This document shows positions 5,590 through 42,005 of a stretch of DNA of 64,000 nt, piece by piece; within the stretch, counting starts at the first letter, position 1; every line of letters starts with the position of its first letter. This DNA is from an uncultured Thermoplasmatales archaeon. Lineage in GTDB: Archaea; Thermoplasmatota; E2; DHVEG-1. A program made the position numbers and the translations under genes. The stretch lies in assembly GCA_964638155.1 (NCBI GenBank), contig CAZWYI010000010.1, forward strand, positions 1,305 through 65,304. Reading direction: 5' to 3'. Below the pieces are notes generated by a model. The model was not told the DNA's origin, ran no database searches, and worked only from the letters and a program-made list of their open reading frames with translations.

Positions 5590-6156
5590 TTATTTTCCTC
5601 TTTTTTTTATTTTACCTAAATAATTTATAACTATTTTTGAATGAAGCGCTCTTTTGTCATCAATAGTTGTTTTTTCTTGTTTAATTTTTATTGCAATATA
5701 CGTTTTACCAAAGGGTTTAACATCTTTATTTAAACATTCTTGGATTTCATTTTCTATTACTTTATTTTTTCTTTCATTTATTAAATCGATTATTTCAATT
5801 TGATTTCGAAAGCGATCTACTGCTTTTTTATCAAGATTTTCAATATATGGTATCGCGCCAGGTGCATCAATGATTCTTTTCTCTTTATCTATACCATTTT
5901 TATTTAAAGATAATAAAGATGCTCCAGATCTATGGCCTCTAATCTCATTACCACATACTATTATAAACCTTATATTAGGATTTGATATAGTGTTTGCCAC
6001 AATTTTTTCTATTCCAATGTTTTCTGTTTTTAATGGTCCGTATATCGCTACTTTTTGTGAAGGAGTATAATCGATATTTAGAAGTACTAATGCAACCGGG
6101 CTTGCACTATCTATTTCTGTAAATTCTCCGCCCCATGGATAGTATTTTTCTTTCAT
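5590..6156 (-). CDS. mtrA: MtrA-like corrinoid-binding protein (soluble, no C-terminal membrane anchor)
   Basis: [45 protein letters not shown] matches the MtrA cobamide-binding core (..C.[30 protein letters not shown]..G). 188 aa, ends at nt 5590 directly abutting mtrH-like. Confidence 0.6.
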   Translation of the reverse strand: [188 protein letters not shown]

Positions 6157-24284: not shown

Positions 24285-27200
24285 ATGATGCTAGCAAAGA
24301 AAACAACAGCATTTACTATTACTTTTATCCTAATTTTTAGTATGTTTTCCTATTTAATATGCCCCATCAAACCAAAGGCAGAACAGACTCCAGATGAAAT
24401 TAGTGAAATCATTGAGCTATTTTCTTCACTTATTGGAGATATTGATTTTAAAAATATTTTAACACCGCATCCTTATAGATTTGTTGGTGTATGGGAATCT
24501 AACGGAACACGCACTATCTCTGGAGATATGGATTTTAAGCTTTATTTTTCTTCAAATATCATTAATGAAATTAACCCTTTAGGTTTTGAAGACAAAGTAA
24601 ATGTGTCTGTATATCACACATCAGGTGGAAAACCTGTGTTAAAAGGTGAAAAAAATGATATTGATATTGATCTAAAAGAAGGAATTCTAAACGATAAGGT
24701 TCAATCTATGAACGTAAAAATAAAAGATATTAATGTATCAATAAACAAGGGAGATTATCTTTTATTTGGAATCGAAATGAATCAATCAAGAAAATGGATA
24801 AGTAAACTTACTGAAAATAGATATGAAAAAGCAATTCAGCCACGATTAGAAAAATTTGCAAGATGGCTGAAAGATAGAGATGATCCAAATTTACGTCAAA
24901 TAGGTAACATTACTAGTTTATTTTTAGAAAATCTTACCGCTTTTGGTGTAGGGGGAGAAGAGTTTTCATATTTAATAAATGCTTTAAGATCATCTAGTTT
25001 TTATTATGGCTCAAAACAGTACAAATCAAATGTAAAATTTTCATCAGAAGAAAATGAGAATTTTACTATATTTTTTAGAAATGAAGGAGATTTTTCTTTT
25101 GAAACAAATTTCTTAGGTGAAAGTATATTTTCATATATTTCAGATATATCTGGCACTCCCTATTTTAAAATTGCAAATAATACAGCTCCAACTACTGGAA
25201 CAAAACACGCATGGCCACCGTTTGTAGGCAGCGTAGAAGATGTATTTCAAAATCTACAAGATACTATTGGAAATTTTGAGGATACTTCCGGTAATTTTAC
25301 GCAGGACTATAACGATCCAATAAACTGGTTAGTAATATTTTTAGTATATTATTTTGAATCTGTCCCTGAGATACCAGAAAACCAGGTTAATTTGTATCTA
25401 AAAGATAATGAATTATCAACTGGCAAGCCGAGTGAAGATACAAAAAGAAAAAAATTATCAGAAAACACATCGAGTACATGGGTAAGTACACCTATTCCAA
25501 GAAATAGAATAATTAAAAATCTCTCTGCTGAATTATATATCCATTATCCAAAATTAATTACTTTTAGTAATTTAGAAGTTAAGGCATCAATTTTAGATGA
25601 AAATGAAGGAATTACAATTGCAGAAGATACGCAAACTCTTGATAGAACTACTTTTTATGAGTTAAGAACAAGGGGGCCAGAATCACCTACTGTGTTTAAC
25701 TTTGATATTAAAGATGGCGGATACGAAATATTTTATGATCATAATCTTAGCCTCAATGTTGTTATTAGCAATGCCCCTCTTATTAACCTCAGACCTGTGA
25801 ATCTATTATACAATTCTGAACAATATCCTTCACATATAACTTATGTGTTTGATGAGACAGATAACATAAAAATAGAAGATGTTGAGGATAAAAAGATCTA
25901 TGCTGGAGGTAGTGCAAAGTTTGAATTCAATGTATCAAGTAATTATTCAGATACATTAAAAATAGATATTTTAGAAAGAGATAATCAAGGAACGCAGTGG
26001 AATGTTGAATACAGCCCTGAAACAATGGAATGTGAAGAAAAAAGCACAACACAGGTAACCGTTTATATAAATTCAACGGCAACAGATGACTCTGTTTATG
26101 GAAATTATTATAGTTTCTATCTAAATGTATCTGGAAATACTGGAATAGATAGCAAATCAGCTTTAGTTACTATCGATATGGAAGCTGTAGAATACGATTT
26201 TGAATTAATTTTACCAGATACACTTCAGATGAAACATGGTGAAGAAAAAACCATAACTCTTGGAATTAAAAACAAAAATAAAGGGCATATACAAGATGAT
26301 TACACGGTAGAAATTGCTTCTAAAAATGAATTTAAAACAGAGTTTTTAAATGAAAGCTATGTAACAAATGTTCCAGTATACGAACAAGATTCTGATATCA
26401 CTAAAATAAAATTAAATGTTTCAATCCCATGGTATACAGATGTAAATAAAGATAAATTAACATTTAATGTTACTTCAACAAAAAGTGTTAATTATCAAAA
26501 AGATCTTATCAAAACAGTTGTTGTAACGGTAAATATAACTAATCCGAATATAGTTGAATCAATCTATCATTTATTTGAAATACTTTCTCAAAAAATCGGT
26601 TTAAGTAACTATACAAGCTATGGAGCATGGATTTTAATAGGTATTTTAGCTTTAATCTTACTTATTATAATTACAATTGCTGTGATACTTATTAGAAGAA
26701 AATACGCTAAATTAACTTGTAAAGAACAGATTAAAGAAATCTATTCAGATGAAACGGCAGTATATGAAATAATAATTAGAAATCCATATAAAAGAACTTT
26801 AACCTATGATATAGAATTTGAAGCAGATGAAGATACAAAAGACAGATGGAAAATAGATCTTGAAAAAACAAAAGTTACTCTTGGCCCAAACAAAAAAGAT
26901 ACAATAAGATTAACAGTCAAACCTACTGACTATGTCAAGCAAGAGGATTTTGCTGAAGTAAAAATAAATATCAAACCAATCCTTAAAAGAAAAATTTCTA
27001 GTATTACCACAGTTACAGTTTTAAAAGATTCAAAAATAGACATATCAATATCGGGGGTTATACATTGGCCTAAAAGATTTAAAAAAGGAGATGTAGTTGA
27101 AACCTCCTTTAAGCTTTTTAATAAAGGTAAAGTTTCTGCGGATAACCTAACAATAGTTTTATATGTAAATGGTGAGGAAAAAAATAAAGTAGAAGAAGTT

Positions 27201-27287
27201 ACTATTCCTATTGGAGGTTATGCAGATATTGAAATACCTTGGATAGCAGAAAAAGGTAAAAACGAAATAAAAATAATAGTTAAATAA
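24285..27287 (+). CDS. Large (1000 aa) cell-surface protein with CARDB/DUF11-like Ig domains and a TM helix near aa 770-800
   Basis: Signal/TM N-terminus. Repeated NPYKRTLTYDIEFEADED / TITLGIKNKNKGHIQDDYTVEIASKNEF beta-sandwich-like segments. TM YGAWILIGILALILLIIITIAVILIRRKY. Confidence 0.5.
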   Translation: MMLAKKTTAFTITFILIFSMFSYLICPIKPKAEQTPDEISEIIELFSSLIGDIDFKNILTPHPYRFVGVWESNGTRTISGDMDFKLYFSSNIINEINPLGFEDKVNVSVYHTSGGKPVLKGEKNDIDIDLKEGILNDKVQSMNVKIKDINVSINKGDYLLFGIEMNQSRKWISKLTENRYEKAIQPRLEKFARWLKDRDDPNLRQIGNITSLFLENLTAFGVGGEEFSYLINALRSSSFYYGSKQYKSNVKFSSEENENFTIFFRNEGDFSFETNFLGESIFSYISDISGTPYFKIANNTAPTTGTKHAWPPFVGSVEDVFQNLQDTIGNFEDTSGNFTQDYNDPINWLVIFLVYYFESVPEIPENQVNLYLKDNELSTGKPSEDTKRKKLSENTSSTWVSTPIPRNRIIKNLSAELYIHYPKLITFSNLEVKASILDENEGITIAEDTQTLDRTTFYELRTRGPESPTVFNFDIKDGGYEIFYDHNLSLNVVISNAPLINLRPVNLLYNSEQYPSHITYVFDETDNIKIEDVEDKKIYAGGSAKFEFNVSSNYSDTLKIDILERDNQGTQWNVEYSPETMECEEKSTTQVTVYINSTATDDSVYGNYYSFYLNVSGNTGIDSKSALVTIDMEAVEYDFELILPDTLQMKHGEEKTITLGIKNKNKGHIQDDYTVEIASKNEFKTEFLNESYVTNVPVYEQDSDITKIKLNVSIPWYTDVNKDKLTFNVTSTKSVNYQKDLIKTVVVTVNITNPNIVESIYHLFEILSQKIGLSNYTSYGAWILIGILALILLIIITIAVILIRRKYAKLTCKEQIKEIYSDETAVYEIIIRNPYKRTLTYDIEFEADEDTKDRWKIDLEKTKVTLGPNKKDTIRLTVKPTDYVKQEDFAEVKINIKPILKRKISSITTVTVLKDSKIDISISGVIHWPKRFKKGDVVETSFKLFNKGKVSADNLTIVLYVNGEEKNKVEEVTIPIGGYADIEIPWIAEKGKNEIKIIVK

Positions 27288-27317
27288 TACTATTGTTATG
27301 CAAGGTAAAGATTTGTA

Positions 27318-28205
27318 GTGTTTCTTATGGCTGAAAAATCTAAAAAGAAAGAAATTGAGCAAATCAAAGATGCAGAAAAAAAGTTCCAGTCATATATTTC
27401 AAAAAGAAATGAATTAAATGACATGGCAAGGCTCTTACGTGAAGAAAGAGATATGATTCATGAGAGTAAAAAAGAGCAAAAAGAAGAGATTAATAACCTA
27501 AAAAAAGAGCGCGACGAATTTGTCAAAAAAATGAAGGGGCATAAAAAAATAAGAAATAAGCTTCAAGAAGAAGCAAAAAAATTAATTAAAGCTAAACAAA
27601 AAAAGAGAGGAGCTGTTTTTAGAAATCTACCTATGAGAGTAGAAGAACTAAAAGCAGATGTGCAAATGCTTGAGTATCGGCAGGAAACTGTTCCTATGGC
27701 CCCTCAAAAGGAAAATGACCTGATCGAAAAAATCCGTGAAAAGAAAAAAGAATTTAAAAAAGTTAAAGAACAAGTAAAGAAACAAGAGAAAATCAAAATT
27801 GATATCTCTGATAAAGATAATGCAATAGATGAACTTTTCAAAAAGGCAGATGAAGAACATGAAAAAGTAGAAAAATATTACAACGAAAGTCAGAAGAAAC
27901 ATGAAAAATATATAAAACTTGTAAAAGAAATGTCTGTGTCTATTGCTGAGGCAAACAAAAAACATGAAGAGTATATATCTGTTAAAAAAGAGGCAGATAA
28001 GGTTCATAACAAAGCCTATGAGATGAAAGGAGAAATTATTGCTATTAAAAACGAGAGGCGTAAGAGATATAAAGAATCAAAACAGGCAATAAAAGATCAA
28101 AACATAAATGCAAGGAAAGCAGTTATGGACAAGGAAAAATTAAAAAAACATGCAGATAAATCTGTTGAAGAACTTAAAAAAGGTAAGAAAATTAAATTAG
28201 GTTAA
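27318..28205 (+). CDS. Lys/Glu-rich coiled-coil protein (archaeal COG1340-like)
   Basis: 295 aa almost entirely heptad-like KE-rich sequence. No enzymatic motif. Confidence 0.4.
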   Translation: MFLMAEKSKKKEIEQIKDAEKKFQSYISKRNELNDMARLLREERDMIHESKKEQKEEINNLKKERDEFVKKMKGHKKIRNKLQEEAKKLIKAKQKKRGAVFRNLPMRVEELKADVQMLEYRQETVPMAPQKENDLIEKIREKKKEFKKVKEQVKKQEKIKIDISDKDNAIDELFKKADEEHEKVEKYYNESQKKHEKYIKLVKEMSVSIAEANKKHEEYISVKKEADKVHNKAYEMKGEIIAIKNERRKRYKESKQAIKDQNINARKAVMDKEKLKKHADKSVEELKKGKKIKLG

Positions 28206-28299: not shown

Positions 28300-29778
28300 A
28301 TGAAAAATATAAAAAAAATAATTTCAATTTTAATAGTAATAATATTATTAGTATCAATTTTGTTTATTGTTTTTTATCAAAATATTTCAAAAACAAATGA
28401 AAATAAAAATACAAATTTTGACAAAGAACCACCAAAAATAGATACAATCACCGGGAATACAACTGGTACAAACGGTAAAATAACAACTATAATTGCTACT
28501 TTTTCAGATAATTACAATGTAACAAATGCAACTATTTATTATAAAAAATCCAGTGTAAATAATTGGAATTCTAAATCAATTTTATCCGGCAGAGCAGATA
28601 TCAAAATTCCTGACAACTCAATAGAGAATTGGCATTACTATGTAACAATTGATGATAAAGCAGGTAACGGTCCTATTGGTAAACCTTCAGTTGATGGAAG
28701 TAAATATTTTATCATAGATGTTACACGTGCTCAGACAGATCTTGAACATAAAGTATTTGTTGAGCAGGGTTCGGCTAGCTGGTGCTCTAACTGTCCAAAA
28801 ATTGAAAAGATATTAAATAGTTTATATGACCCTGCTGACCCTGATTTTTATTATGTAAGCCTTGTATCTGATAGAAACAAAAAAGCAGAAGAAAGATTAT
28901 ACGATCATTACAACATATATGGTTTTCCAACTGTTTTTTTCGATGGAGGGTATGATGCATGCTGTATCGATGTAGAAGCAGAAGAAAAAGACGCAGATCT
29001 TTTTAATGAAAAACTATCAAAAGTCAAACAGCGCGATCATCCAGAAATTTACATAAATGTAAATGCAACCTGGAATGATGAAAAAAAAGAACTGAAAACT
29101 GATGTAAATCTTGAAAACTATGAAAAAAACAAATATTCTGGAAATTTAAAGGTTTATATAACCGAGATAAAAAGTAGATGGGTTGATTGGGCAGGAAACC
29201 CATATCATTATGCATTTCTTGATTATTCTATTGATAAATCCATTGAAATAGATGCAAACAATCAGGCATTTTTTACAGGGGTTTGGGATTCAAGTGATTA
29301 TTCAGATATTTATCCTGAAAACCTTTGGGTTATAGCTGTTTTGTTTAATTCCAAAGAAGTAAAAAAATATAGCGATCCACCTCAGAATGAAAAAGAATTT
29401 AATGCAAATTTTGCTGATGCTTCTGATGGGACAAAAGTAGCAAATGGAACACTTCCACCGGGTATTGGGATTAGTTTTCCCAATCAATGGAATAGATATA
29501 TTTTTGGAAAAGAAAGAGGTAAATCAATTCTTAGAAAAACAGTGATTATTGGAAAGATTCCTATAAAACTAAATATTGATTCAGAAGAAGAAGTTGAAAA
29601 AGTAGAAATAATTATAAAAGGACTTTTTAGAGAAAAAACTTTTACCCTTGGAAATGAGCCTTATGAATACACATGGAATAGCTTTTCTTTTGGAAAATAT
29701 ACAATAACTGCAAAAGTTTATGATAAAAAACAAAGAACCGCAACAGATGAACTAGAAGTCATAGCATTTATTATCTAA
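28300..29778 (+). CDS. Exported multi-domain protein with an embedded thioredoxin-fold domain (WCSNCP...GFPTVFFDGG) flanked by Ig-like domains
   Basis: Signal/TM. Thioredoxin CxxC with Trp before Cys and a cis-Pro-like FPTV motif ~75 aa later. C-terminal EPYEYTWNSFSFGKYTITAKVYD Ig-like motif. Confidence 0.45.
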   Translation: MKNIKKIISILIVIILLVSILFIVFYQNISKTNENKNTNFDKEPPKIDTITGNTTGTNGKITTIIATFSDNYNVTNATIYYKKSSVNNWNSKSILSGRADIKIPDNSIENWHYYVTIDDKAGNGPIGKPSVDGSKYFIIDVTRAQTDLEHKVFVEQGSASWCSNCPKIEKILNSLYDPADPDFYYVSLVSDRNKKAEERLYDHYNIYGFPTVFFDGGYDACCIDVEAEEKDADLFNEKLSKVKQRDHPEIYINVNATWNDEKKELKTDVNLENYEKNKYSGNLKVYITEIKSRWVDWAGNPYHYAFLDYSIDKSIEIDANNQAFFTGVWDSSDYSDIYPENLWVIAVLFNSKEVKKYSDPPQNEKEFNANFADASDGTKVANGTLPPGIGISFPNQWNRYIFGKERGKSILRKTVIIGKIPIKLNIDSEEEVEKVEIIIKGLFREKTFTLGNEPYEYTWNSFSFGKYTITAKVYDKKQRTATDELEVIAFII

Positions 29779-30401
29779 TCAACAGCTTCTTTGTGAGTGT
29801 TATATAGATCTATTGCTTCTTTGATATAATTTCTTAGTTCTTCTTTTTGATTTTTAGGTTTTTCTTTAAGGCCATATATAGTTGCATATGTTGGTTCTAT
29901 AAACCCATGGTTATATCCATATGTTACAAAAACCATCATTGGATTTCCCGCATCTCCAACTATATCGTAAATATATCTAGATTTATAAAGCAGGCTATCT
30001 TCTTTTACTCTATTTGTATTTATGTGAATAAAAGTGATGTTTGAATTATTGAATTTAACTTTTTTATAAAAAACATCATACGGTCCAAAAGAAATATTTA
30101 AAACATCGATTAAAACTTCTTCAAGTTCATCACAACCTGGGCAAAAATCAATTCTATATGTTATAACTACAGGTCCTTTTGATAAGTTTTCTAAAACAAA
30201 ATCAGGATGAGGCATATTATTAGCTGTTTCAAATCTATATTCTATATCTGTGTCAGGTCCTAATTTGATACAGCTCAAGCATAACTCTTCAACAATTTTT
30301 CTTTTTATTGAATCGTAAACATCTGTATAAGTAAGTAATCCAATTCCTGCAGAAGAAAAAAGAATAATCATTGTTATCTGTAAAACAAATATCTTTTTCA
30401 T
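29775..30401 (-). CDS. Exported thioredoxin-like protein with two CxxC motifs
   Basis: Signal peptide. CLSC and FCPGC motifs. NPMMVFV cis-Pro-like region. 208 aa. Confidence 0.45.
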   Translation of the reverse strand: MKKIFVLQITMIILFSSAGIGLLTYTDVYDSIKRKIVEELCLSCIKLGPDTDIEYRFETANNMPHPDFVLENLSKGPVVITYRIDFCPGCDELEEVLIDVLNISFGPYDVFYKKVKFNNSNITFIHINTNRVKEDSLLYKSRYIYDIVGDAGNPMMVFVTYGYNHGFIEPTYATIYGLKEKPKNQKEELRNYIKEAIDLYNTHKEAVD

Positions 30402-30402
30402 T

Positions 30403-31230
30403 TCAAGCCCTCTTATATTTAATTAGATTGTGTGGACAAGTGCTTATGCATTTTCCACATAAAATACATTCAGGATCTCTATGCATATTTGGTATATCTA
30501 TAGCCATCGGACATACATCTGAGCATAAATTACAGTGAACACATCTTTCCTTGTCAACATCAACATATAAAATACTTATTTTGTTAAAAGGAGCTAGTAT
30601 TGCTCCAACTGGGCAAAAATATCTACACCATCCTCTTTCTATTAGAAAAATTAGTGCTATAAATAAAATAAATACTAAGAGTGCAGGATAAAAATATGAA
30701 GATGGAACGTAAATACCGGGATTTAAAACTAAGATTGGAAATGTTCCTGTTAGCACTCCAACCGGACATATATCCGTAAACATAAAACCAATAAAAATTG
30801 AAGTTATAAATACAAACCCTATTAATACAATATATTTTATGTATCTAAAATATGGTTCATACTTATATTGACCTATTTTTTTAATAAAAGGAAATTTTAT
30901 TTTCAAAAATCGTGCTATTTTTCCTGTTCCTCTTTGAAGTAAACCTATAGGACATACCCATCCGCAAACAGCTCTACCAGAAAAAACGCCTACAACACCT
31001 AATATAAGTAATGGAAATAATAAAAGTTTAAGGCTAAAGTTACCTGGTTTTTTATAGGTGTCAAAAACACTAAGTTCTAAAGATCTTAAAGGACAAGCAG
31101 AGGTTGCAGTAGGGCATGCATTACAATAAAAAAAGGGATAGCAGAAGCCGGTTTTTAGGTTAAAAGCACCTAAATTTGCTGTAAAAAAAAAGATAATTTG
31201 AGCAATTAATCTTTTTATTTGGAGTTTCAT
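30403..31230 (-). CDS. NapH/MauN/CcoG-family membrane FeS protein (two CX3CP motifs plus two [4Fe-4S] ferredoxin motifs)
   Basis: GRAVCGWVCP and GWCRYFCP CX3CP motifs in a >=4-TM N-terminal part. C-terminal CVHCNLCSDVCP and CILCGKCISTCP ferredoxin clusters. Confidence 0.7.
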   Translation of the reverse strand: MKLQIKRLIAQIIFFFTANLGAFNLKTGFCYPFFYCNACPTATSACPLRSLELSVFDTYKKPGNFSLKLLLFPLLILGVVGVFSGRAVCGWVCPIGLLQRGTGKIARFLKIKFPFIKKIGQYKYEPYFRYIKYIVLIGFVFITSIFIGFMFTDICPVGVLTGTFPILVLNPGIYVPSSYFYPALLVFILFIALIFLIERGWCRYFCPVGAILAPFNKISILYVDVDKERCVHCNLCSDVCPMAIDIPNMHRDPECILCGKCISTCPHNLIKYKRA

Positions 31231-31233
31231 TTT

Positions 31234-31758
31234 TTATCTCTTTTTATAAATGAATAACATGCTAATAAAAAGTGCTATTATTACAAATATAAATTCAAAG
31301 CCAGGTGTGCCATTGTCAGAATTTTGATTATCATCTTTTGAATCATTTTTATTTGAATCTATATCTAAATCTACCAACCATGAATCATCTGTTAATTGAT
31401 ATTCTGTACCACTATCCATAACTGTAAAAAAATATTGTATATGATCTGTTCTACCTTGAGTATCTTCTAAGGCTAATGTTTTTACATATTTTCCTTCTGA
31501 ATTAAGCTCCATCTCATAATTATTACTAACATAACATTGTTCAGTATTATAATTACATTCTAAAACAAATAAAGTAACACTTGTTATATTTTCACCAGAT
31601 ATATTGGCAATTACAGTAACAGTTGACTGAGGTTCTGGTTTTTCAGGGTTTGTATTAATATTATTTACAGTTGGCTCAGCTGTAGCAGATATAGCAATTA
31701 CACTAATAATAACACTAACACCTAAACATAATAACATTTTTTTTCCAAGATTTTTCAT
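31234..31758 (-). CDS. Exported protein with PGF-CTERM archaeosortase sorting signal
   Basis: Signal peptide. Asp/Asn/Ser-rich linker then PGFEFIFVIIALFISMLFIYKKR (PGF + TM + basic tail) at the C-terminus. Confidence 0.55.
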   Translation of the reverse strand: MKNLGKKMLLCLGVSVIISVIAISATAEPTVNNINTNPEKPEPQSTVTVIANISGENITSVTLFVLECNYNTEQCYVSNNYEMELNSEGKYVKTLALEDTQGRTDHIQYFFTVMDSGTEYQLTDDSWLVDLDIDSNKNDSKDDNQNSDNGTPGFEFIFVIIALFISMLFIYKKR

Positions 31759-31777
31759 TTTTTCTCACCTCCAATAT

Positions 31778-32299
31778 CTAAATTAATTTATCTAATTTTT
31801 TTGAAATTTCAGGGTACTGAGTATAACCTGAAAAACTATGATAAATATTTCCATTTTCATCAATTAAAACAACTTTTGGAACACCACCATCAGGTACATA
31901 ATCTTTTGCAATGCTACCATCTGAGTCCATACCAAAAATCCAGTCTAATTTCATTCCAAGTTCACGATCAAATGCATCTATAAAAGATTGAAGATATGCT
32001 TCTGTTTCATATTGATATACATCAATAGATATGATAATTATTTCAGTATAATTTTCACTTACAGATTTTAAAGCTGGCATTTGATACACACAATATGGAC
32101 AGTCTACACCCATAAAGTCAAGTAATATTATATTTCCTTTATAATCTGAGAGTTTTATATTTTTTCCCTCTAGAGTTTTTAAAGAAAAATCAGGTGCATC
32201 ACCCCATTCTGAATTTACATCTTTAATATCTGTGCATCCAGCTAAAAAAGATACAGTAATCAATAAAAGAAAAATTACTATAATACCTTTTTTAAACAT
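31778..32299 (-). CDS. TlpA/ResA-like thiol-disulfide oxidoreductase (redoxin), lipoprotein-type signal
   Basis: Lipobox-like LAGC. GVDCPYCV CxxC. Redoxin/AhpC-TSA-like length (173 aa). Confidence 0.7.
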   Translation of the reverse strand: MFKKGIIVIFLLLITVSFLAGCTDIKDVNSEWGDAPDFSLKTLEGKNIKLSDYKGNIILLDFMGVDCPYCVYQMPALKSVSENYTEIIIISIDVYQYETEAYLQSFIDAFDRELGMKLDWIFGMDSDGSIAKDYVPDGGVPKVVLIDENGNIYHSFSGYTQYPEISKKLDKLI

Positions 32300-32317
32300 T
32301 TATTTCTCTTCCATATA

Positions 32318-32728
32318 TTATTTATGTTTTTGTAATCTTTGTTTTAGCTGTTCTTTTGGAAGAGCACCAATTAGTTTATCTACTAAGTCTCCATTTTTAA
32401 ATACTAAAATTGTTGGAATACTCATTATCTGATGCTTCGATGGTATTTGCTGGTTCTCATCTACATTTAATTTTCCAAATACTATTTCTCCTTTCATTTC
32501 TTTGGCAAGTTCTTCTATTACTGGTCCGACCATTCTACATGGTCCACACCAAGGAGCCCAACAGTCTACTACAACAGTATCGTATTTTTTAATTGTTTCT
32601 TCAAAATCGGCATCTGTAACGTCTATTGGTTTATCTGGCATATTTTCCATATTTTTTTCTCCTTTCATGTATTTATTTTTGTATTCTTCCATTTTCTTTT
32701 TCTTTATGTCTTCAAGTTCATTATCCAT
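32318..32728 (-). CDS. trx: Thioredoxin
   Basis: Canonical WAPWCGPC active site, no signal peptide. 136 aa with a short Lys-rich N-terminal extension. Confidence 0.85.
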   Translation of the reverse strand: MDNELEDIKKKKMEEYKNKYMKGEKNMENMPDKPIDVTDADFEETIKKYDTVVVDCWAPWCGPCRMVGPVIEELAKEMKGEIVFGKLNVDENQQIPSKHQIMSIPTILVFKNGDLVDKLIGALPKEQLKQRLQKHK

Positions 32729-32802
32729 TATTCACCTATAATACTTGTTCTAGTATATAACGTTTGTGTATAAATTTAGCACAACCGTTAAATATATGAT
32801 AT

Positions 32803-33174
32803 TTGATAATAAAAAATAGAAAAATGAAATTTATAAATCCCAACAATAACATATGCTGCAATGATGTAATACAATGTGTCTTTGATCTAAACGATTTAGA
32901 CATAAACACATATAAAAAACTAAAAGAAAAAAAAGAACTACAGGCAACGGAACTTGCAGACATTTTAAAAAAAGAAAGAAGTACAGTTTATAGATCACTA
33001 CAGAGACTAGTATGTTGTGGACTATGTAATAAAGAAACTAAAACACTAGAAAAAGGCGGATATTTTCACGTATATTCACCTATTACCAAAAAAGAAACAA
33101 AAAAAAAGATAAACAAATGTATAGATGATTGGTATAAAAAAATGAAAGATACAATAAAAACTTTAGAATCTTAA
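32803..33174 (+). CDS. Winged-helix (TrmB/MarR-like) transcription regulator
   Basis: ELADILKKERSTVYRSLQRLV helix-turn-helix recognition segment. 123 aa. Confidence 0.45.
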   Translation: MIIKNRKMKFINPNNNICCNDVIQCVFDLNDLDINTYKKLKEKKELQATELADILKKERSTVYRSLQRLVCCGLCNKETKTLEKGGYFHVYSPITKKETKKKINKCIDDWYKKMKDTIKTLES

Positions 33175-33177
33175 ACC

Positions 33178-33432
33178 TTAATTATCCTGTAGCCATTTGC
33201 GAATTCTAAGATATCCTACTATTTTTTCACCATTTATCCACATAATTGGTGCAGTACGCTGCAAATCCTCAAACACATTATGATTTTTTGCCTCACTAAT
33301 TTGATTTTCAGACCATTCGTTTAGATCATGAGGATAGGTTACAATCTTAATATCGTCTCTATCAGTAATCAATTTTTTTGTATCATTACACTTCATGCAT
33401 TTTTCAAGTGAAAACAAAATTTTTTCTGCCAT
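33178..33432 (-). CDS. Glutaredoxin-like small redox protein
   Basis: CMKC motif near the N-terminus and PIMWINGEKIVGY resembling the glutaredoxin TVP..I.G..IGG region. 84 aa. Confidence 0.5.
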   Translation of the reverse strand: MAEKILFSLEKCMKCNDTKKLITDRDDIKIVTYPHDLNEWSENQISEAKNHNVFEDLQRTAPIMWINGEKIVGYLRIRKWLQDN

Positions 33433-33730: not shown

Positions 33731-34684
33731 TTAATTTAATTCAAAAATTTTACATATATTTTTTAGCTTACTATAAAGCAAATTTTTAAATTTTCTGTAT
33801 TCTTCACTATCGATATCAATTAAAATAAGACGGGAAATATCATCATCTGAATTTCCAAAAACTCCTTTATTTAACAAACTACAATTATTTTGTAAATTCT
33901 CTCTTGCAACTTGAGAAATCAAAAAACTACTTTTGATTTTTCTAGATATTAAAATATTATCCATCTTTAAAATATCTTTTTTAGATTTATTGATAAGATA
34001 CAAATCAAAAACATCTCGTTCTTTAAGTTTTTCTCTAGTGAGAATAGCGCGATATTTCTCAAGTACTACTTCATTTATTGGATATGTTTTAGTTTCAATA
34101 TTTCGTAAATCATAACCAATAGATTTCAGATAAAGATCTTTACCAACGATATTATTTATTTTAGATTTAGAATAATTATTGATGATTTTTTCTAAAAAAT
34201 TTATCTCAATTTTAATTGGAATTTCCTCATCTGTAATTAAGGATTTATAATATATATTTAGTATATATACCGCTCTTGAATTTCTTAAATTAATGTACTT
34301 AGGATTTTTTCTATCGGTTTTAAAATCAAATTTTGCGATATCACATATTGATTTTATTTCTTTAATAAGTAAAATAACTGCCTTTTTTATTTCTTTCTCT
34401 CTTTTATTAACACTTTTAATTAAACGAAAATCATTACATTTATCATATGTAAAATCAATATCTTCACTAATTCTTGGATAATTTAAAAAATTTCTAATCA
34501 GTAATGTTCCGCCTTTAAAAATTAGATTATTTAGACTACGAATGTTTCCAGCGACATTTTGTTTTTGCCAAGTGGAGAGAAATAACGATATAAAATAGTC
34601 TTTTTCAATATAGTAATCATCAATATTTGATCCTTTTTTATTTTTAACATAGGACAGATATTTATTAAAATTTGTTCTATTCAT
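33731..34684 (-). CDS. abiEii: AbiEii/AbiGii-family nucleotidyltransferase toxin (type IV TA)
   Basis: FKGGTLLIRNFLNYPRISEDIDF matches the KGGTAL...R.SeDIDF NTase motif of DUF1814/AbiEii. 317 aa. 4-nt overlap with the upstream gene. Confidence 0.65.
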   Translation of the reverse strand: MNRTNFNKYLSYVKNKKGSNIDDYYIEKDYFISLFLSTWQKQNVAGNIRSLNNLIFKGGTLLIRNFLNYPRISEDIDFTYDKCNDFRLIKSVNKREKEIKKAVILLIKEIKSICDIAKFDFKTDRKNPKYINLRNSRAVYILNIYYKSLITDEEIPIKIEINFLEKIINNYSKSKINNIVGKDLYLKSIGYDLRNIETKTYPINEVVLEKYRAILTREKLKERDVFDLYLINKSKKDILKMDNILISRKIKSSFLISQVARENLQNNCSLLNKGVFGNSDDDISRLILIDIDSEEYRKFKNLLYSKLKNICKIFELN

Positions 34685-35298
34685 AAATAAAATACCTTCT
34701 TTTTAAAATTCTTTGAATAGTTTTTAAGATACAATTTCAATTTTTGTTTTTTCGTAAACTTGGATAATTTTATTGGAGGTATCTTTTTTAGATAAATAAA
34801 ATCAAGGTATGTTTTTTCAGGATTTGAGTAGTAAAAAGTAATTCTATTCTTGGTAGTTTTTTTTATATATCCAAAATCGATTTTATCTCTTTTTATTTTA
34901 CAAAACCTATATCTAATTCCTAGTATTTTTCTTTCACCAGATATTTCAGAATTAATAATTATTGGATTAACAATACCCTGCCACAAAATATTATTTCTTT
35001 CAAGAGCACTATATAGGCCAAGATACCATCTAATATTTAATTTATTAAGAATTGCATAAAGCATTTCATTTGTGGAATAATTTGTATAATCTCCCTTTTT
35101 TTCTTCTATACTTAATATATAGTAATAACCTTTGAAGACATATATAGTGTCTTTATTTCTTCTAAGGTTAACAATAATATTTTCGGTATATTTGTCTTGC
35201 AATACATCTCTAAGTACTTTTTCCAATTGTCTTTTAGATATAAGTTTATCATTAATTGAATCTAAGATATTCCTTATAATCCTTTTATCAATTTTCAT
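34681..35298 (-). CDS. abiEi: Putative AbiEi-like antitoxin/transcription regulator (partner of AbiEii)
   Basis: 205 aa, immediately upstream of and overlapping abiEii, the size and position expected for AbiEi. No strong motif recognised by eye. Confidence 0.45.
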   Translation of the reverse strand: MKIDKRIIRNILDSINDKLISKRQLEKVLRDVLQDKYTENIIVNLRRNKDTIYVFKGYYYILSIEEKKGDYTNYSTNEMLYAILNKLNIRWYLGLYSALERNNILWQGIVNPIIINSEISGERKILGIRYRFCKIKRDKIDFGYIKKTTKNRITFYYSNPEKTYLDFIYLKKIPPIKLSKFTKKQKLKLYLKNYSKNFKKKVFYL

Positions 35299-35462: not shown

Positions 35463-38400
35463 TTATTTTTTCTTTTTTGATTTTGTTGATTTTTTACTTG
35501 ATTTTTTTGTATCTTTTGTTGGGGTTTTATTTTTTCCTTTTGGTATTTTTTCTTTTTCTTCTTCGATATAGAGATAACCTGTTTTAAACATTATAAAAAT
35601 CACTAAGATAATTACTATAATTATTGTAATAATTATTAATGCCCATACTGGAAAGCCTTTGTCTTCTTTAATATAAACTTCTGTTTCATCTGAGGAAGGA
35701 TTATAAGTATAATCCCATTCTCCATCACCATCTGTATCTATTAGATAGTTACCATCTTCGTATTTTACTTTTACATTATCATTTTCTGAACTGTATATTT
35801 TATCATATATTCCGTCTTTATTTGTATCAACTAGATAATAAGTTATTCCATCAATTACTGGTATTTCTTTTACATCTGTAGGATCATCTGGGTCTGAACC
35901 AAGTTCAGTTTCTATTTCATCATCTATATTATCCCCGTCGTTATCTGAGTCACCTGCATATTTTCCATCAGGTGAAGGATCATCAGGTACTCCGTTTCCA
36001 TCTGTATCCTTTGGTTTATCTGTATCATCATTGATGTCAGTTTCATATGATTCTTCTATTTCATCACTCCATCCGTCAGCATCTGTGTCAAGTGTGATAT
36101 TTGCAGTTGTAATATTAGTATCAGTTAGGCCATCACTATCAGTTACTGTTAAAGTTACATTAAACAAACCTGATTGATTATAAATATGAACAGGGTTTTC
36201 TCCATAACCAAAGGTTTCATCGCCAAAGTCCCAGGTATAGTTTTCTATACCATCACCTGTGGTTGCATCTGGATCTATACTTTCTGATCCGTCAAAAGTA
36301 ATGTTTTCAAAGGTTAATGCTTCATATGGACCTCCTGCATCAGCTGTTGGTTTGTAAGTTGGAGTTGATTGCTCAGAGATATTTACTTCTGCAGTAGCAG
36401 TAGCAGTATCTGAATCATCATCTGTGACAGTTAAAGTTACTGTATATTCTCCTTCTTCACTATAAGTATGTGTAACTGTTTCACCTGTTCCAGTTGAATC
36501 ATCACCAAAATCCCATGAATAACTATATGGCTCTGTTCCATCTGATGCTGAACCTGTGAATTCAACAGAAGAACCAACTGTTCCAGAGTAAGGACCATTT
36601 GCATCAGCTGTAAATGTCGGGCTTGGAGGAATAACTGTACCTCCATTTCCTCCGCCACCTTGATTATTAACAGTGATATCAGCAGTATTTGTAGTATAAC
36701 CTGTTTTTACAGCGGTAACTGTTTTAGGTCCAGTTGAGGAAACAGAAGGAGCATCTAAGGTTACTTCTCCATTTAAATCAGTTGTTCCACTATCGCCGCT
36801 GACACTAACTGTTACACCTTGAACTGGAATATTCCCTCTTGAGGTAACTGTAACATCAAATTGATTGTTTTCTGTTACACTATTTGGAAGTGAAAGTGAT
36901 AAGAAATTATAAGCAATTAATGGATACAAATCTTGAGTGCTACCACCGCTTATATTGTATGGTGTATCACCTATGCCATCACCGTTAGAATCAGTTCCTG
37001 TATAGTTTCCCCAATAATTCCCCTCATTAATATTTGTGTTATACCACGTGTTGTTACTGCAATTATCATAAGAGCTTATATTGTTGTTATATATCTTATT
37101 GTGATACAACGTATTATTTTCAGAAAAGGCATCATAAAAGGTAGTCAGATTAAAACCATATTCGCTGTAAGATATATTATTTTCAATTATTAGGTTGCCA
37201 CTTGAACCTTTAAGTAGAATACCCCACGAGCTTTCTGCTGGGTTGGTGTTATTGTTATTATAGAATTCATTTGAAGAAATAGTGTTATTATTAGAAGATG
37301 GGGCTAAAGAAATTCCTCCACTGTCACAAGAAGATACGTTGTTATCTGTAATTGTGTTAAAATCTGCATAGCTTAAATCAAAGCCATTTGCATAAGGCCC
37401 TAAAGCATTATAACTCATATTGTAAATTGTGTTGTTTGAAATTGTACAATATGTAGAATTAGTAATTTTCATACCTGGTCCTGATTGCAACCTAGTAGAT
37501 TGAGAGACAGCACAATTACTAATGTTAATAAAACTACAGTGACTGCTATTATCGCTTTGGCTGAACCATTCAATCATTCCTAGAGCTATACCACCATGTG
37601 ATGAATTTTCAATGTTACATCCTACTATGTTACAGTTTGTTGCGTTGTCAAAAGCAATACCGATAGTACAGTTATAAATGGTAATATTTGTTATGTTAAT
37701 ATTACTAATATCCAAAGGGTTAGAAGAGTTATAAACATATATTCCTACAGCATAATCAGGTAATGCTTTGATACAATTTCTTATAGTAATATCTTTTATG
37801 TTAACGTTACTTGTAGTTATATTAATTCCAAATCCATAATTACCATCTAAAATTGCCAATTCAGTTCCATCAATTGTTATACTTTTATCAACGAGAAGAT
37901 TTTCATAATAGGTTCCATTATAAACAAAAACAGATCCATCTGCAGAAACTGCATTTATACCTTCTTGAATGGTATCAAAGTGATCAACGTTCCAGCCGGG
38001 TGTTGAACTTGTGTAATCATCATCCACCCATACAAAAGTAGGTGGTGTTGTACGTTTGTTTGTTAAGGGATATACGTCCTGATTGCTACCAGATGCAATA
38101 TCATACGGTGTATCACCTATGCCATCACCATCAGAATCAGTTCCCGCGTAGTCTCCCCAATAGTTACCCTGGAAAATAGTTGTATTGTACCAATCGTTAT
38201 TACTACAGCGGTCAAAGGAGTTATTTAGCGAATTATTATAAACATTATTGAAATAAATTGTATTATTTTCTGAACAAACTGATAACCAAGATGAAACATA
38301 GATACCTTCATCATTGTAATACACATTATTTCTAGTGATTGTATTATTGTCTGATGCTAAAACACAAATACCATATGCCATAGCATTCGTATTGTTATAG

Positions 38401-40394: not shown

Positions 40395-40407
40395 TTGTTT
40401 TTCCTCC

Positions 40408-41937
40408 CTATTTTAATTTCCATTTTATTATCAACCCTAAAAAAATAATTATAAATAAAGAAATTATGCCCATAATTAATATAAGATTATTTGGCTGTGA
40501 TTTTGTTTCTTTTATATATTCGCTAAATTCTCCAGATAGACTATTATACTTGTATTCATATTTATTGTCATTATTTGAGTTTATTAAATAAAAACCATTT
40601 TCCAGAATAAGATCCGTAACATATCCTTTAGTTCTATTGTAATATCTATCTAATTTTCCGTCACCATCGATATCTATAAGATAAAATAAACCAAATTCAT
40701 TTAAAATTCTAATAACATCTTCTGGATTAGTAACATTGGTACCCAATTTATTTTCTATAACATCACTTAAACCATCATTGTCATCATCAGCATCCCATTC
40801 ATCAGGGATTCCATCGCCATCGAAATCTGAAGGAAAATCATCTGGATCAAATGGATCTGTACCATAATATTGTTCTGCCTCATCACTCCAACCGTCATTA
40901 TCAGAATCATCAGATGTAACATTTACTTGTGTTTCAATAGAATTGCTTGTTCCATTATTATCAATGACTTTTAATATAACGATAAATTGCCCTACATTTG
41001 AATAAATATGATCAGTTGTAACATCATTTGTTTTAACACCTGTTCCATCGCCAAAGTCCCAAACATATTCAATTATATATCCATCTGAGTCAGTACTATC
41101 TGAGGCATCGAAAGTAACAGTCTCATTTGTTTTGCTATAATATGGTCCTCCTGCATTTGCAACTGGTGGTATATTTTCAATGTTTTCATCTGAGGGAGGA
41201 GGAGCAGGAATAAAATCATTACTCGGGGGGGTAGTACTTCCTCCGTTTCCACCATTGCCACCATTTTGAGTGTCACTTTTAGTCTTAAATTTATAATAAT
41301 TGGAAGAATTATCATCTATACCAGTATTTCCAGATATATCAAAAGACGAAACCTCAAAATAATACGTAGTGTCAGTATTTAAATCAGAAATAATTATATT
41401 ATGATTTTTTACATAAGAAGAGTCTTTTTTAGTATTTAGAGGAGGAACTGAACTACCATAATTTACTATAGAATTAGATTTCTCATTAGTTATCCAAGTG
41501 ATACTTGCCTGAGTTTTACTAACCGATGAAACAGATACTTCGCTTATGACCGGGGAAGTAGTATCAAAAGATAAATTAAAAAACAATGAATAATCTACAT
41601 TTTCACCACCTGCCTGAAATTTTGCTGTTTTACCAGTTAAGGTGTCATTTATATAAAAATAGATAGTTTTATCAGCATCGCTATTAGACCCCTTTATAGG
41701 AAAACCTTCTGTTATTGGCACATATCCATAGGCCCCATCTTTGATAGGGGTTGTAAAAATTTTAGACCCCAGTTTTGCTGTAACGGTACCATTCTGAATA
41801 AGTTCACCATTTTTATCAAAAACATATCCATAGAAATAATGTGGAAGAACTGGAATGTCATCTCCATTTATAGTTGGAACTAATAACAAAGATAAAATGA
41901 ATGTAGTTAATATCATACTCGTAAGTACTTTTTGCAT
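40408..41937 (-). CDS. Exported surface protein (509 aa): FN3-like + PKD domain + Ca-binding Asp-rich repeats + C-terminal TM anchor
   Basis: Signal peptide. TSPVISEVSVSSVSKTQASITW (FN3-like). YVWDFGDGTGVKTNDVTTDHIY (PKD). DSDNDGWSDEAEQYYGTDPFDPDD. C-terminal TM LILIMGIISLFIIIFLGLII. Confidence 0.6.
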   Translation of the reverse strand: MQKVLTSMILTTFILSLLLVPTINGDDIPVLPHYFYGYVFDKNGELIQNGTVTAKLGSKIFTTPIKDGAYGYVPITEGFPIKGSNSDADKTIYFYINDTLTGKTAKFQAGGENVDYSLFFNLSFDTTSPVISEVSVSSVSKTQASITWITNEKSNSIVNYGSSVPPLNTKKDSSYVKNHNIIISDLNTDTTYYFEVSSFDISGNTGIDDNSSNYYKFKTKSDTQNGGNGGNGGSTTPPSNDFIPAPPPSDENIENIPPVANAGGPYYSKTNETVTFDASDSTDSDGYIIEYVWDFGDGTGVKTNDVTTDHIYSNVGQFIVILKVIDNNGTSNSIETQVNVTSDDSDNDGWSDEAEQYYGTDPFDPDDFPSDFDGDGIPDEWDADDDNDGLSDVIENKLGTNVTNPEDVIRILNEFGLFYLIDIDGDGKLDRYYNRTKGYVTDLILENGFYLINSNNDNKYEYKYNSLSGEFSEYIKETKSQPNNLILIMGIISLFIIIFLGLIIKWKLK

Positions 41938-42005
41938 ATATCTCCTGTGATTACCCCCTTGAAAATAGTAATAAGATATAAAAGAAAGGGAGAATTTTTT
42001 TAAAT

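Follow-up and report, generated by a model that had tools for sequence, protein, structure and literature searches.

NapH, of the NapGH quinol dehydrogenase, is reported to have four transmembrane (TM) domains with its clusters on the cytoplasmic side (PMC5449189), and the NapH superfamily also includes the cupric reductase CcoG/FixG, which carries two [4Fe-4S] clusters, Cys motifs, and an outer Ig-like domain (PMC7558416). In the flavinylated "NapH-like" systems (NosR, PceC/RdhC, and others), a membrane apparatus links electron pools to an extracytosolic mediator; in that study, DsbD rather than a NapH-like protein was the partner of thioredoxin-like mediators (Meheust et al. 2021, PMC8238504). 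Here, we analyzed a 64,000-nucleotide stretch of DNA from an uncultured Thermoplasmatales archaeon (the window), in which a NapH-like protein is encoded together with exported thioredoxin (Trx)-fold proteins, a pairing for which we found no description in the literature. As in the flavinylated systems, a modular membrane apparatus would stand between cytoplasmic or membrane electron pools and an extracytosolic mediator. However, those systems rely on an ApbE-flavinylated FMN-binding domain as the mediator, whereas here it would be a set of Trx-fold CxxC proteins, and both FMN-binding domain and ApbE are absent from the system described here.

Gene content and conservation of the locus

A first-pass annotation had described seven redox-fold ORFs in ∼5 kb, and a check of the window sequence confirmed all seven, coordinates and Cys motifs included. 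Six form a minus-strand operon in the order Grx-like, Trx, TlpA-like lipoprotein, Y174, NapH-like, and X208, interrupted after the first gene by a divergent regulator. Intergenic gaps are short (Trx-TlpA, 18 nt; TlpA-Y174, 19 nt; Y174-NapH, 3 nt; NapH-X208, 1 nt), and in relatives the Y174 and NapH genes overlap by 4 nt. The seventh, Ig492 (492 aa; 28300..29778), lies on the plus strand, convergent with the operon, and the stop codons overlap at 29775-29778. Neither this opposite orientation nor the regulator at 32803-33174 (+) had been mentioned in the annotation.

About 80 species-level genomes of Thermoplasmatota strictly share the gene order Trx-TlpA-Y174-NapH-X208, a recurrence that is not due to chance. 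Whether the NapH-like, TlpA-like, and Trx genes stay together in related archaea had been raised as a question at the outset; in these genomes they do. Across 80 loci, many of which are cut by contig ends, we counted NapH-like in 80, X208 in 78, Y174 in 75, TlpA/Trx in 69, Ig492 in 45, and Grx84 in 39. All redox Cys residues are conserved across the operon orthologues, and the operon is conserved in sediment archaea (Thermoprofundales).

The cytoplasmic thioredoxin (32318..32728, minus strand; DCWAPWCGPC) matched TIGR01068 at 128 bits (cut-off, 96.8), and it has neither a signal peptide nor a TM segment. C61 and C64 were kept in 68/70 orthologues; conservation does not extend to the first 33 residues, suggesting that the true start may lie further downstream. 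Grx84 (33178..33432, minus strand) is a small cytoplasmic protein with the expected CMKC motif, and its CxxC is conserved (C12 in 45 and C15 in 48 of 50 orthologues), but the likeness to glutaredoxin with which it had been annotated is weak (E = 0.009 with Pfam and 0.046 for the family profile versus PDB glutaredoxins). In most loci its gene immediately precedes Trx in the same orientation, and in relatives without the regulator it is the first gene of the operon. The regulator, Reg123 (32803..33174, plus strand), is a winged-helix protein of the TrmB/Lrs14/Sta1 type (Pfam TrmB, 45.6 bits; NCBIfam Sta1 and Lrs14 below threshold) with conserved C19, C75, and C106. Flanked by the Grx-like gene and Trx, it is divergent from the Trx operon, occurs at the same position in about 24-26 of the 80 loci, and likely starts at the ATG at 32824.

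The DsbD/CcdA profile PF02683 matched none of the about 58 ORFs of the window, so the reported lack of CcdA/DsbD holds within it; nor was a DsbD/CcdA domain found in the flanks of related loci or in four bacterial fusion loci. With E. coli DsbD as the query, phmmer matched only via the DsbD gamma domain.

The NapH-like protein and its exported partners

The NapH-like polytopic protein (30403..31230, minus strand) matched Fer4_5 twice and carries two CxxCxxCxxxCP ([4Fe-4S]) motifs in its C-terminal domain. Like NapH and MauN, it combines four TM helices with CX3CP motifs following TM2 and TM4 and a cytoplasmic C-terminal domain for two [4Fe-4S] clusters, and it is 25% identical to E. coli NapH over 222 residues. 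However, it scored far under the family cut-offs (96.9 versus 213; 84.6 versus 234), and no NapG, NapAB, NapC, or mau gene was found near it. The outer partner in NapGH is an FeS protein, whereas here it is a thiol protein, and quinone use in the Thermoprofundales clade is doubtful. The CX3CP motifs (C89/C93 and C202/C206) are predicted to sit where TM2 and TM4 end on the inner side, with positive-inside counts (K+R) of 11 for the TM2-TM3 loop and 0 for the TM3-TM4 loop. On the predicted outer face lie Cys residues specific to this subfamily (C30, C36, C39, C46, and C155, after TM1 and TM3). C36, C46, and C155 were found in 113-114 of 123 representatives and in 35/35 fusions; in contrast, E. 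coli NapH lacks their equivalents and so differs from the subfamily in having no conserved outer-face Cys. Relatives differ in the outer N-terminal Cys motif, which has 2 to 4 Cys, and in the AF2 model of the protein it is placed at pLDDT below 50.

Four exported proteins accompany this membrane protein. The TlpA/ResA-like lipoprotein (31778..32299, minus strand; CPYC) has an N-terminal hydrophobic segment with an LAGC lipobox, matches Redoxin and AhpC-TSA above cut-off as well as ResA and Etrx structures (E = 1e-8 to 1e-11), and keeps its CxxC in 71/74 cases. Y174 (31234..31758, minus strand) had been annotated as a PGF-CTERM exported protein; export with a C-terminal sorting signal stands, but that signal is borderline (Heimdall-CTERM, 24.2 versus a cut-off of 24) and PGF-CTERM itself is below threshold. 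Its domain is presumably beta-rich, and its Cys pair (C68 and C75) is invariant. In hhalign comparisons this pair falls on the catalytic pair of nDsbD, at a similarity below significance (probability 28%; E = 6e-4), and PF11412 was weakly matched by 3/45 members, making Y174 a candidate equivalent of the Ig-like domain at the DsbD N terminus. X208 (29775..30401, minus strand), assigned from fusions and conserved Cys residues, is an N-in signal-anchor protein with a juxtamembrane LCLSCIKLG followed by an extracytoplasmic thioredoxin fold with CPGC; it corresponds to the DsbD gamma domain.

Ig492 is exported and anchored in the membrane; its N-terminal part is a beta-rich domain, followed by a Trx-like core (WCSNCP) and, at the C terminus, a Big_7/FN3-like domain (Big_7 above cut-off). 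As a single sequence the core was below threshold; its family profile matched PDB thioredoxins (E = 8.6e-5), which upholds the embedded thioredoxin core proposed initially. The CxxC was kept in 42/47 members, and in 45 loci the gene adjoins the operon or sits about 3 kb downstream. The first-pass annotation lacked four features: the outer-face Cys residues, the probable docking role of the juxtamembrane CxxC in X208, the likeness between Y174 and nDsbD, and the regulator.

Gene fusions across the membrane

Gene fusions provide the decisive evidence that NapH-like and Trx-fold proteins are coupled. In P0220 (964 aa; other Thermoplasmata), a single polypeptide contains the NapH-like module (residues 2-261; E = 6e-67), a TM helix (277-295), X208 (275-453; 4e-27), the Ig492 core (480-678; 1e-11), Y174 (802-908; 1e-6), and a C-terminal TM helix, and similar fusions occur in P0221, P0216, and locus L086. 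P0216, P0220, and P0221 each have a single TM helix that links the NapH-like module to the X208 domain behind it; the Ig492 core is joined to NapH-X208 in P0221 (E = 3e-14) as in P0220; and L086 (E = 5e-8), like P0220, unites the Y174 domain with the NapH-like protein. A further protein, P0258, carries a GltD-like NAD(P)H flavoprotein at the N terminus of the NapH-like module.

Among 150 representatives (50% clustering), 35 consist of a NapH-like module, one TM helix, and 1-2 Redoxin (TlpA-type) domains, confirmed with Pfam. Their bacterial hosts are Oscillospiraceae and Lachnospiraceae (source annotation, "redoxin family protein"), and the CxxC of the fused domains is mostly CGPC or CxPC, of the reductase type. 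A whole bacterial fusion protein, redoxin domains included, returned 5024 matches at E <= 1e-10; all 120 among the matches listed combined PF12801 with a redoxin family. Such NapH-like::TlpA fusions are common in Clostridia. Immediately upstream of the fusion gene, a small membrane protein is encoded that ends in ICTEC[IV]GLG in 4/4 loci, sharing with archaeal X208 the motif phi-CxxC-I-x-L-G; the juxtamembrane CxxC of X208 is the probable docking element. NapH-NapG fusions show the same layout of an extra TM helix followed by an outer redox domain (PMC5449189). In the fusions of NapH-like and Trx-fold proteins, a single TM helix separates the ferredoxin domain from the Trx-fold domain, which places the two on opposite sides of the membrane and bears on the topology question left by the first-pass annotation.

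A proposed relay and its alternatives

We consider it probable (roughly 0.6) that the island is one machine that carries reductant from the cytoplasm to Trx-fold domains on the outer face, doing the work of DsbD/CcdA though unrelated to them. This reading builds on gene content, Cys conservation, synteny, fusions, and the positions of the ferredoxin and Trx-fold domains relative to each other across the membrane. A relay of this kind had been suggested initially: synteny, spacing, fusions, and topology support its coupling of NapH-like and exported Trx-fold proteins, but electron transfer and its outward direction are what we infer from them, as are donor, order of outer steps, and clients.

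A cytoplasmic donor would first reduce the two [4Fe-4S] clusters in the C-terminal part of the NapH-like protein. The likeliest donor would be reduced ferredoxin produced by amino-acid fermentation, with the operon's Trx and Grx-like protein as the alternative; the operon-encoded cytoplasmic Trx is no less consistent with a DsbD-like thiol route than with the ferredoxin route. Electrons would then cross the membrane module from the inner CX3CP motifs (TM2 and TM4) to the outer C36, C46, and C155, possibly with C30 and C39. This step is without a precedent mechanism, because no intramembrane cofactor has been shown in the NapH family and CX3CP has been variously proposed as a disulfide, cluster, or Cu site (PMC5928378, PMC7558416). 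From there, electrons may pass to the juxtamembrane CLSC of X208, on to the CPGC of its thioredoxin fold, and finally to the Ig492 core, the Y174 Cys pair, and the TlpA-like lipoprotein, which would reduce putative surface or extracellular disulfides. In Thermoprofundales, POR, VOR, KOR, and IOR generate reduced ferredoxin, and the genomes also encode extracellular cysteine peptidases (PMC6461988); a C25 peptidase is encoded within the window. The large glycosylated surface proteins nearby, earlier put forward as clients, are unsupported, with only 11-18 Cys in 1600-1900 residues.

The proposed job matches that of DsbD, CcdA, and ScsB, which deliver cytoplasmic reductant to extracytoplasmic Trx-fold proteins of the TlpA/CcmG/ResA type, and here, too, a cytoplasmic thioredoxin is encoded alongside. 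As in DsbD, a membrane-proximal Trx-fold (X208, like DsbD-gamma) is paired with a Cys-pair domain (Y174, possibly like the Ig-like DsbD-alpha). However, the membrane parts are not homologous, being here of the NapH type with two [4Fe-4S] and CX3CP motifs, and ferredoxin or NAD(P)H, instead of thioredoxin, may be the likely source of electrons.

The architecture and the fusions are symmetric as to direction, and the module could instead be an analogue of DsbB/VKOR for quinone-less anaerobes, in which outer Trx-fold proteins oxidize secreted proteins and the NapH-like protein hands the electrons inward to an acceptor in the cytoplasm. The Thermoprofundales genome paper has no mention of quinones or cytochromes (PMC6461988), so chemistry of the DsbB type may be unavailable, and exported proteins with several Cys are encoded in the window. 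We nevertheless judge this oxidative direction unlikely: the cytoplasmic Trx and the NAD(P)H-flavoprotein fusion P0258 resemble donors, not acceptors. The CGPC/CxPC motifs that prevail in the fused bacterial domains are of the TlpA/Trx type, whose characterized members are reductants, versus the CPHC of DsbA. Inward flow would also be uphill, given that ferredoxin-type [4Fe-4S] potentials are usually far below those of thiol/disulfide couples.

In ferredoxin:thioredoxin reductase (FTR) and heterodisulfide reductase (Hdr), electrons pass from [4Fe-4S] to a disulfide. These enzymes supply the chemical precedent for the FeS-to-Cys hand-over required by the relay, although they are soluble or peripheral, unrelated in sequence, and without transmembrane transfer. 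The same established chemistry would serve a membrane-bound ferredoxin:thioredoxin reductase, in which the clusters and CX3CP motifs, predicted to face the cytoplasm, reduce the Trx and Grx-like protein encoded in the same operon, while reductant crosses by another route or the outer proteins merely anchor or regulate. This arrangement seems improbable, since it leaves unexplained the covalent fusion of NapH-like to exported Trx-fold proteins via a TM helix, the conserved outer-face Cys residues, and the partner's juxtamembrane CxxC, and no Trx or TlpA-like gene was found within 8 kb of the L086 fusion.

Metal handling, with CcoG-like reduction of Cu or another metal and the Trx-fold and Ig-like proteins as Sco/TlpA/PCuAC-like chaperones, we judge highly unlikely. 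CcoG/FixG shares with the system described here the superfamily, the two [4Fe-4S] clusters, the Cys motifs, and an outer Ig-like domain; the NapH-like protein scores very weakly against it (28.5 versus 316.7), a cbb3 oxidase context is lacking, and the partners are CxxC redoxins, not Cu chaperones. A co-regulated redox or oxidative-stress regulon of independent products is scarcely credible: stress operons often group Trx, Grx, and TlpA-type genes, and a Cys-containing regulator sits in the cluster of some genomes, but four genes united in one polypeptide, hundreds of NapH::redoxin fusions, and gaps of 1-3 nt all speak against it.

Should CcdA be present elsewhere in the genome, the NapH-like protein may serve the same Trx-fold partners in another way. 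The relay reading suggests that the operon is probably an undescribed route by which reducing power crosses the membrane without DsbD/CcdA.

Gene order and conservation of the redox island

The seven redox reading frames that the first-pass annotation had placed at 28300-33432 are all present, with the motifs it described. Six lie on the minus strand, in transcription order: Grx84, a glutaredoxin-like protein (33178-33432; CMKC); a thioredoxin (32318-32728; WCGPC); a TlpA/ResA-like lipoprotein (31778-32299; CPYC; hydrophobic N terminus with LAGC); Y174, an exported protein with a signal peptide, an invariant Cys pair, and a PGF/Heimdall-type C-terminal anchor (31234-31758); the NapH-like protein (30403-31230; Fer4_5 twice and two CxxCxxCxxxCP motifs); and X208, a signal-anchored thioredoxin-fold protein outside any Pfam family (29775-30401; CLSC and CPGC). 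The seventh, the 492-aa Ig492 (28300-29778), is on the plus strand, convergent to X208, and the two stop codons overlap. Spacing is tight: 18 nt between the thioredoxin and TlpA-like genes, 19 nt between TlpA-like and Y174, 3 nt between Y174 and the NapH-like gene, and 1 nt between the latter and X208.

With 128.1 bits against the TIGR01068 cutoff of 96.8 and its WCGPC motif, the thioredoxin belongs to that family; a third cysteine, C56 (DC56WAPWCGPC), is kept in 68 of 70 orthologues. The TlpA-like protein has the domain score (PF08534/PF00578, 54.1 and 55.9 bits versus a Pfam cutoff of about 26), conserved CxxC, and export signal of a TlpA/ResA-type redoxin and matches ResA/Etrx structures (E = 1e-8 to 1e-11), while staying under the cutoffs of the specific ResA, TlpA, and DsbE equivalogs. 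Grx84 falls under the PF00462 glutaredoxin gathering cutoff (16.6 versus 22.9), and the top PDB matches of its family profile are glutaredoxins at an E value of only 0.046. The thioredoxin core that had been read into Ig492 was borne out, since its family profile matches PDB thioredoxins (E = 8.6e-5); a profile search also found a C-terminal Ig/FN3-like module (E = 1.7e-14).

Between Grx84 and the thioredoxin sits a TrmB/Lrs14/Sta1-type regulator (32803-33174, plus strand) with conserved cysteines C19, C75, and C106, which may be redox sensing. Its conserved start is probably the ATG at 32824, and no operator-like inverted repeats were seen in the 74-bp divergent promoter region. The regulator is found in about one-third of related loci; elsewhere it is missing and Grx84 abuts the thioredoxin gene.

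Hundreds of close homologues of the NapH-like protein (63 to 100% identity) are listed under Thermoplasmatales or Thermoplasmatota as "4Fe-4S binding protein." We scanned one genome per species for synteny, finding 101 relatives and keeping 80 loci. Every one of the 80 comes from an archaeal MAG of the Thermoplasmatota type, with titles that in some cases read Methanobacteriota, Euryarchaeota, or uncultured archaeon; among them are SG8-52-3, SM1-50, M9B1D, and M11B2D, members of the MBG-D/Thermoprofundales. Complete genomes with the cluster include the Thermoplasmatales MAG chromosomes CP070724.1 and CP070798.1. The association of NapH-like, TlpA-like, and thioredoxin genes for which a synteny check had been proposed proved general: the order Grx84-(regulator)-thioredoxin-TlpA-Y174-NapH-X208 is kept almost without exception across the 80 loci. 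Contig ends cut many loci, and with this limit the NapH-like gene was counted in 80, X208 in 78, Y174 in 75, TlpA-like/thioredoxin in 69, Ig492 in 45, and Grx84 in 39. The Ig492 gene is either directly convergent or about 3 kb downstream. The cysteines are similarly stable: X208 C41, C44, C87, and C90 are kept in 80 to 81 of 81 and Y174 C68 and C75 in 74 of 74, and the CxxC motif is kept in 71/74 (TlpA-like), 68/70 (thioredoxin), 45 to 48/50 (Grx84), and 42/47 (Ig492).

Related loci share further conserved neighbors: MetK, an HD hydrolase, a radical SAM protein, and a 460-aa PaaK-like adenylating enzyme. These were rejected as parts of the system, since they are missing from the window and carry no redox motifs; they form an ordinary synteny block. 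An AbiEii-type nucleotidyltransferase toxin (PF08843) and its upstream 205-aa partner of unknown family (33731-35298, minus strand) had no counterpart by tblastn in the 80 related loci, and the pair therefore looks like a mobile insertion beside the island. A phage-integrase-family recombinase lies close to the window end (62994-63887, minus strand). On the other side of the island, a 1,000-aa exported protein outside Pfam families is followed by a very Lys/Glu-rich DUF7121 protein (24285-28205, plus strand), and this pair adjoins the redox island in 10 to 14 related loci. Farther off, MtrA- and MtrH-like methyltransferase subunits, Meth_synt_2 (MetE-like), and PterinBD-DUF4346 form a methyl-transfer cluster (3470-6156, minus strand) in a lineage that, to our knowledge, is not known as a methanogen.

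A NapH-type membrane module with additional outer cysteines

The NapH/MauN/CcoG architecture ascribed to the membrane protein held for the overall plan but not for membership in either named family. The protein has four transmembrane (TM) helices, CX3CP after TM2 and TM4, and a C-terminal pair of CxxCxxCxxxCP motifs, the features that define NapH/MauN; PF12801 (Fer4_5) matches two stretches at 50.7 bits against a gathering score of 22, and Escherichia coli NapH shares the same plan at 25% identity. However, it scores far below TIGR02163 NapH/MauN (96.9 versus 213.05 bits), NF007013 (84.6 versus 234), and TIGR02745 CcoG/FixG (28.5 versus 316.7). Genomic context agrees with neither assignment: no NapG/NapAB(C) or mau genes occur in the window or in related loci, and no oxidase genes are present in the window, the CcoG/FixG context being cbb3 oxidase. 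CcoG links the family to copper reduction (PMC7558416); copper handling was rejected as the main explanation. Flavinylated NapH-like systems of the NosR/PceC type carry an FMN-binding domain and/or ApbE, whereas neither FMN-binding PF04205 nor ApbE had a Pfam match in the island or window.

In a set of 21 homologues, 17 cysteines are invariant; in a larger set of 119, this holds for 16, and C233 is nearly invariant, with C89/C93, C202/C206, and both cluster motifs among the invariant positions. Four cysteines follow TM1 (GFC30-x5-C36-x2-C39P-x5-C46P) and one follows TM3 (D-I-C155-P), and none of these five is found in E. coli NapH. A "...CP(I/V/L)(G/R)xL" unit lies behind each of the four TM helices, two facing inward and two outward. 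We placed the ferredoxin domain and CX3CP inside and the extra cysteines outside on the basis of positive-inside counts (11 Lys plus Arg in the TM2-TM3 loop, 0 in the TM3-TM4 loop) and the published NapH topology of four TM domains with cytoplasmic clusters (PMC5449189). C36, C46, and C155 are present in 113 to 114 of 123 representatives and in 35 of 35 fusion proteins. The number of N-terminal outer cysteines ranges from 2 to 4 among relatives, which favors thiol chemistry over an obligatory four-Cys cluster at that site. The AF2 model has moderate confidence in the membrane core (mean pLDDT, 78.5) and values under 50 in the N-terminal Cys segment, and the membrane module had no match among solved structures.

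Fusion proteins and outer partners

Natural fusions connect the module to thioredoxin folds directly. When 1.84 billion cluster representatives were searched exhaustively with HMMER, 1,848 relatives were returned at E ≤ 1e-10, and architectures were taken from the best 150. Among these, P0216, P0220, and P0221 are single polypeptides from Thermoplasmata and metagenomes. Mapping P0220 (964 aa) with HMMs of the island's own families placed the NapH-like module at residues 2-261 (E = 6e-67), one TM helix at 277-295, X208 at 275-453 (4e-27; CLGC and CPGC both present), the Ig492 core at 480-678 (1e-11; CVNC), and Y174 at 802-908 (1e-6; Cys pair present), followed by a C-terminal TM anchor. The genomic counterpart of this type, locus L086, has the same layout (Y174 domain, E = 5e-8), so that four island genes form one protein elsewhere. 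A 752-aa protein upstream in L086 had looked Y174-like by eye; it had no Y174 HMM match, and the domain lies inside the fusion.

A second fusion type consists of the NapH-like module, one TM helix, and one or two TlpA/Redoxin domains, mostly carrying CGPC or CxPC. It accounts for 35 of the best 150 representatives, and for 35 of the 57 among them that reach at least 400 aa; the source entries call these proteins "redoxin family protein" of Oscillospiraceae and Lachnospiraceae, and P0351 and P0388 are clostridial examples. A word-based search with a whole fusion as the query, redoxin domains included, found 5,024 proteins at E ≤ 1e-10, and all 120 matches listed combine PF12801 with a redoxin family. 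In P0258 (789 aa; cluster members P0383 and P0384), a GltD-like NAD(P)H flavoprotein (Fer4_20 plus Pyr_redox_2) is joined to the N terminus of a NapH-like module of the outer-Cys type, which hints at NAD(P)H as the donor in some lineages.

At four of four bacterial loci, the fusion gene is directly preceded (gap of 1 to 13 nt or a short overlap) by a gene for a small, conserved but uncharacterized polytopic protein outside Pfam families that ends in "...KAI(N/R/T)ICTEC(I/V)GLG" (L096, 6235-6999; L097, 6541-6999; L105, 4539-4988; L106, 4244-5008). X208 shares this nine-residue pattern as "LCLSCIKLG," about 15 residues past its TM helix, and its C41, L42, S43, C44, K46, and L47 show little or no variation. 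We infer that this juxtamembrane CxxC contacts the outer cysteines of the membrane module.

By current understanding, cells depend on the DsbD/CcdA family to bring reductant to their surface. The reported absence of such a protein from the island was confirmed, as PF02683, the polytopic domain with two conserved cysteines embedded in the membrane, had no Pfam match among about 58 open reading frames of the window; E. coli DsbD matches related loci through its thioredoxin domain only. The sequence evidence hints at a possible resemblance between Y174 and the Ig-like N-terminal domain of DsbD. In a profile-profile comparison by hhalign, the Y174 family consensus "V-x-E-C-x4-G-I-C-Y" falls on "T-Y-Q-G-C-A-D-x-G-x-C-Y-P-P" with the Cys pairs superposed, the DsbD cysteines being presumably the catalytic Cys103 and Cys109 of the E. 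coli protein. The single E. coli sequence gave a probability of 1%, and a seven-sequence DsbD alignment one of 28% (E = 6e-4); PF11412 was matched weakly by 3 of 45 Y174 members (best E = 0.14), and sequence and profile searches of Y174 against the PDB gave nothing significant. If the resemblance is real, the outer side would copy the gamma-to-alpha logic of DsbD, X208 taking the gamma role and Y174 the alpha role.

Previous work treated NapH-like proteins as modules for transmembrane electron transfer that pair with flavinylated domains, and it paired thioredoxin-like mediators with DsbD (Meheust et al. 2021; PMC8238504), and NapH-NapG fusions have the same extra-TM layout as the NapH-like fusions here (Tooke et al. 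2017; PMC5449189). No account of NapH-like proteins in partnership or fusion with thioredoxin folds turned up in the open-access literature. We therefore regard the system as a modular membrane unit that is already known but is joined here to a new class of outer mediator, and as functionally convergent with DsbD.

Proposed electron route and its meaning for sediment archaea

In the proposed route, a cytoplasmic donor would supply electrons to the two [4Fe-4S] clusters of the NapH-like protein, from which they would pass to the inner CX3CP pair, the outer cysteines, the CLSC and then the CPGC of X208, and finally the Ig492 core, Y174, the TlpA-like lipoprotein, and clients. Outward, reducing flow is favored by the reductase-type motifs of the fused domains, by the low potential of ferredoxin-type clusters, and by the cytoplasmic NAD(P)H module of P0258. 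The ferredoxin-rich fermentative metabolism of Thermoprofundales (PMC6461988) argues for the same direction. The role of CX3CP has not been settled even in NapH, NosR, and RdhC (PMC5928378).

Secreted cysteine peptidases are reasonable candidates for clients, and disulfide-bonded detrital proteins are a further candidate. The window encodes an exported gingipain-like cysteine peptidase (479-2557, plus strand; Peptidase_C25, E = 6.5e-56, plus Propeptide_C25), which fits the C10, C11, C13, and C25 peptidases and extracellular cysteine peptidases reported for Thermoprofundales (PMC6461988) and might be among the clients of a surface reductant system. The suggestion that the giant surface proteins nearby are clients found no support, their cysteine content being ordinary (18 and 11). 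Three consecutive large surface proteins (1,643, 509, and 1,940 aa; 35463-47828, minus strand) carry NosD/beta-helix, PKD, TSP3, and Ig-like domains, with 86 to 98 N-x-S/T sequons in the two giants.

A bolder reading, to which we give roughly a one-in-four chance, is that the island represents a third and so far unrecognized class of extracytoplasmic thiol-redox membrane machinery, beside DsbD/CcdA and DsbB/VKOR, which in Thermoprofundales may have a role beyond housekeeping. The machinery would be a transmembrane disulfide reductase that is FeS based and driven by ferredoxin or NAD(P)H, widespread in strict anaerobes (sediment Thermoplasmata and gut Oscillospiraceae and Lachnospiraceae). In Thermoprofundales, which ferment protein, its substrates may be extracellular disulfides or polysulfides. 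Such activity may make cross-linked detrital proteins accessible, maintain secreted cysteine peptidases in an active state, and provide an outlet for surplus reducing equivalents.

Surface Cys reduction is poorly understood in strict anaerobes and in archaea without obvious DsbD-type systems, and thioredoxin folds connected to a NapH-type FeS module would be a new solution for delivering reductant to the surface. Through such a system, the enigmatic CX3CP motifs of the NapH, NosR, RdhC, and CcoG superfamily would become accessible to functional study for the first time. The single-polypeptide fusions of gut Clostridia are versions of it that lend themselves to genetics and biochemistry. Where sediment archaea feed on detrital protein by means of secreted cysteine peptidases, the system suggests a power source for extracellular thiol chemistry.
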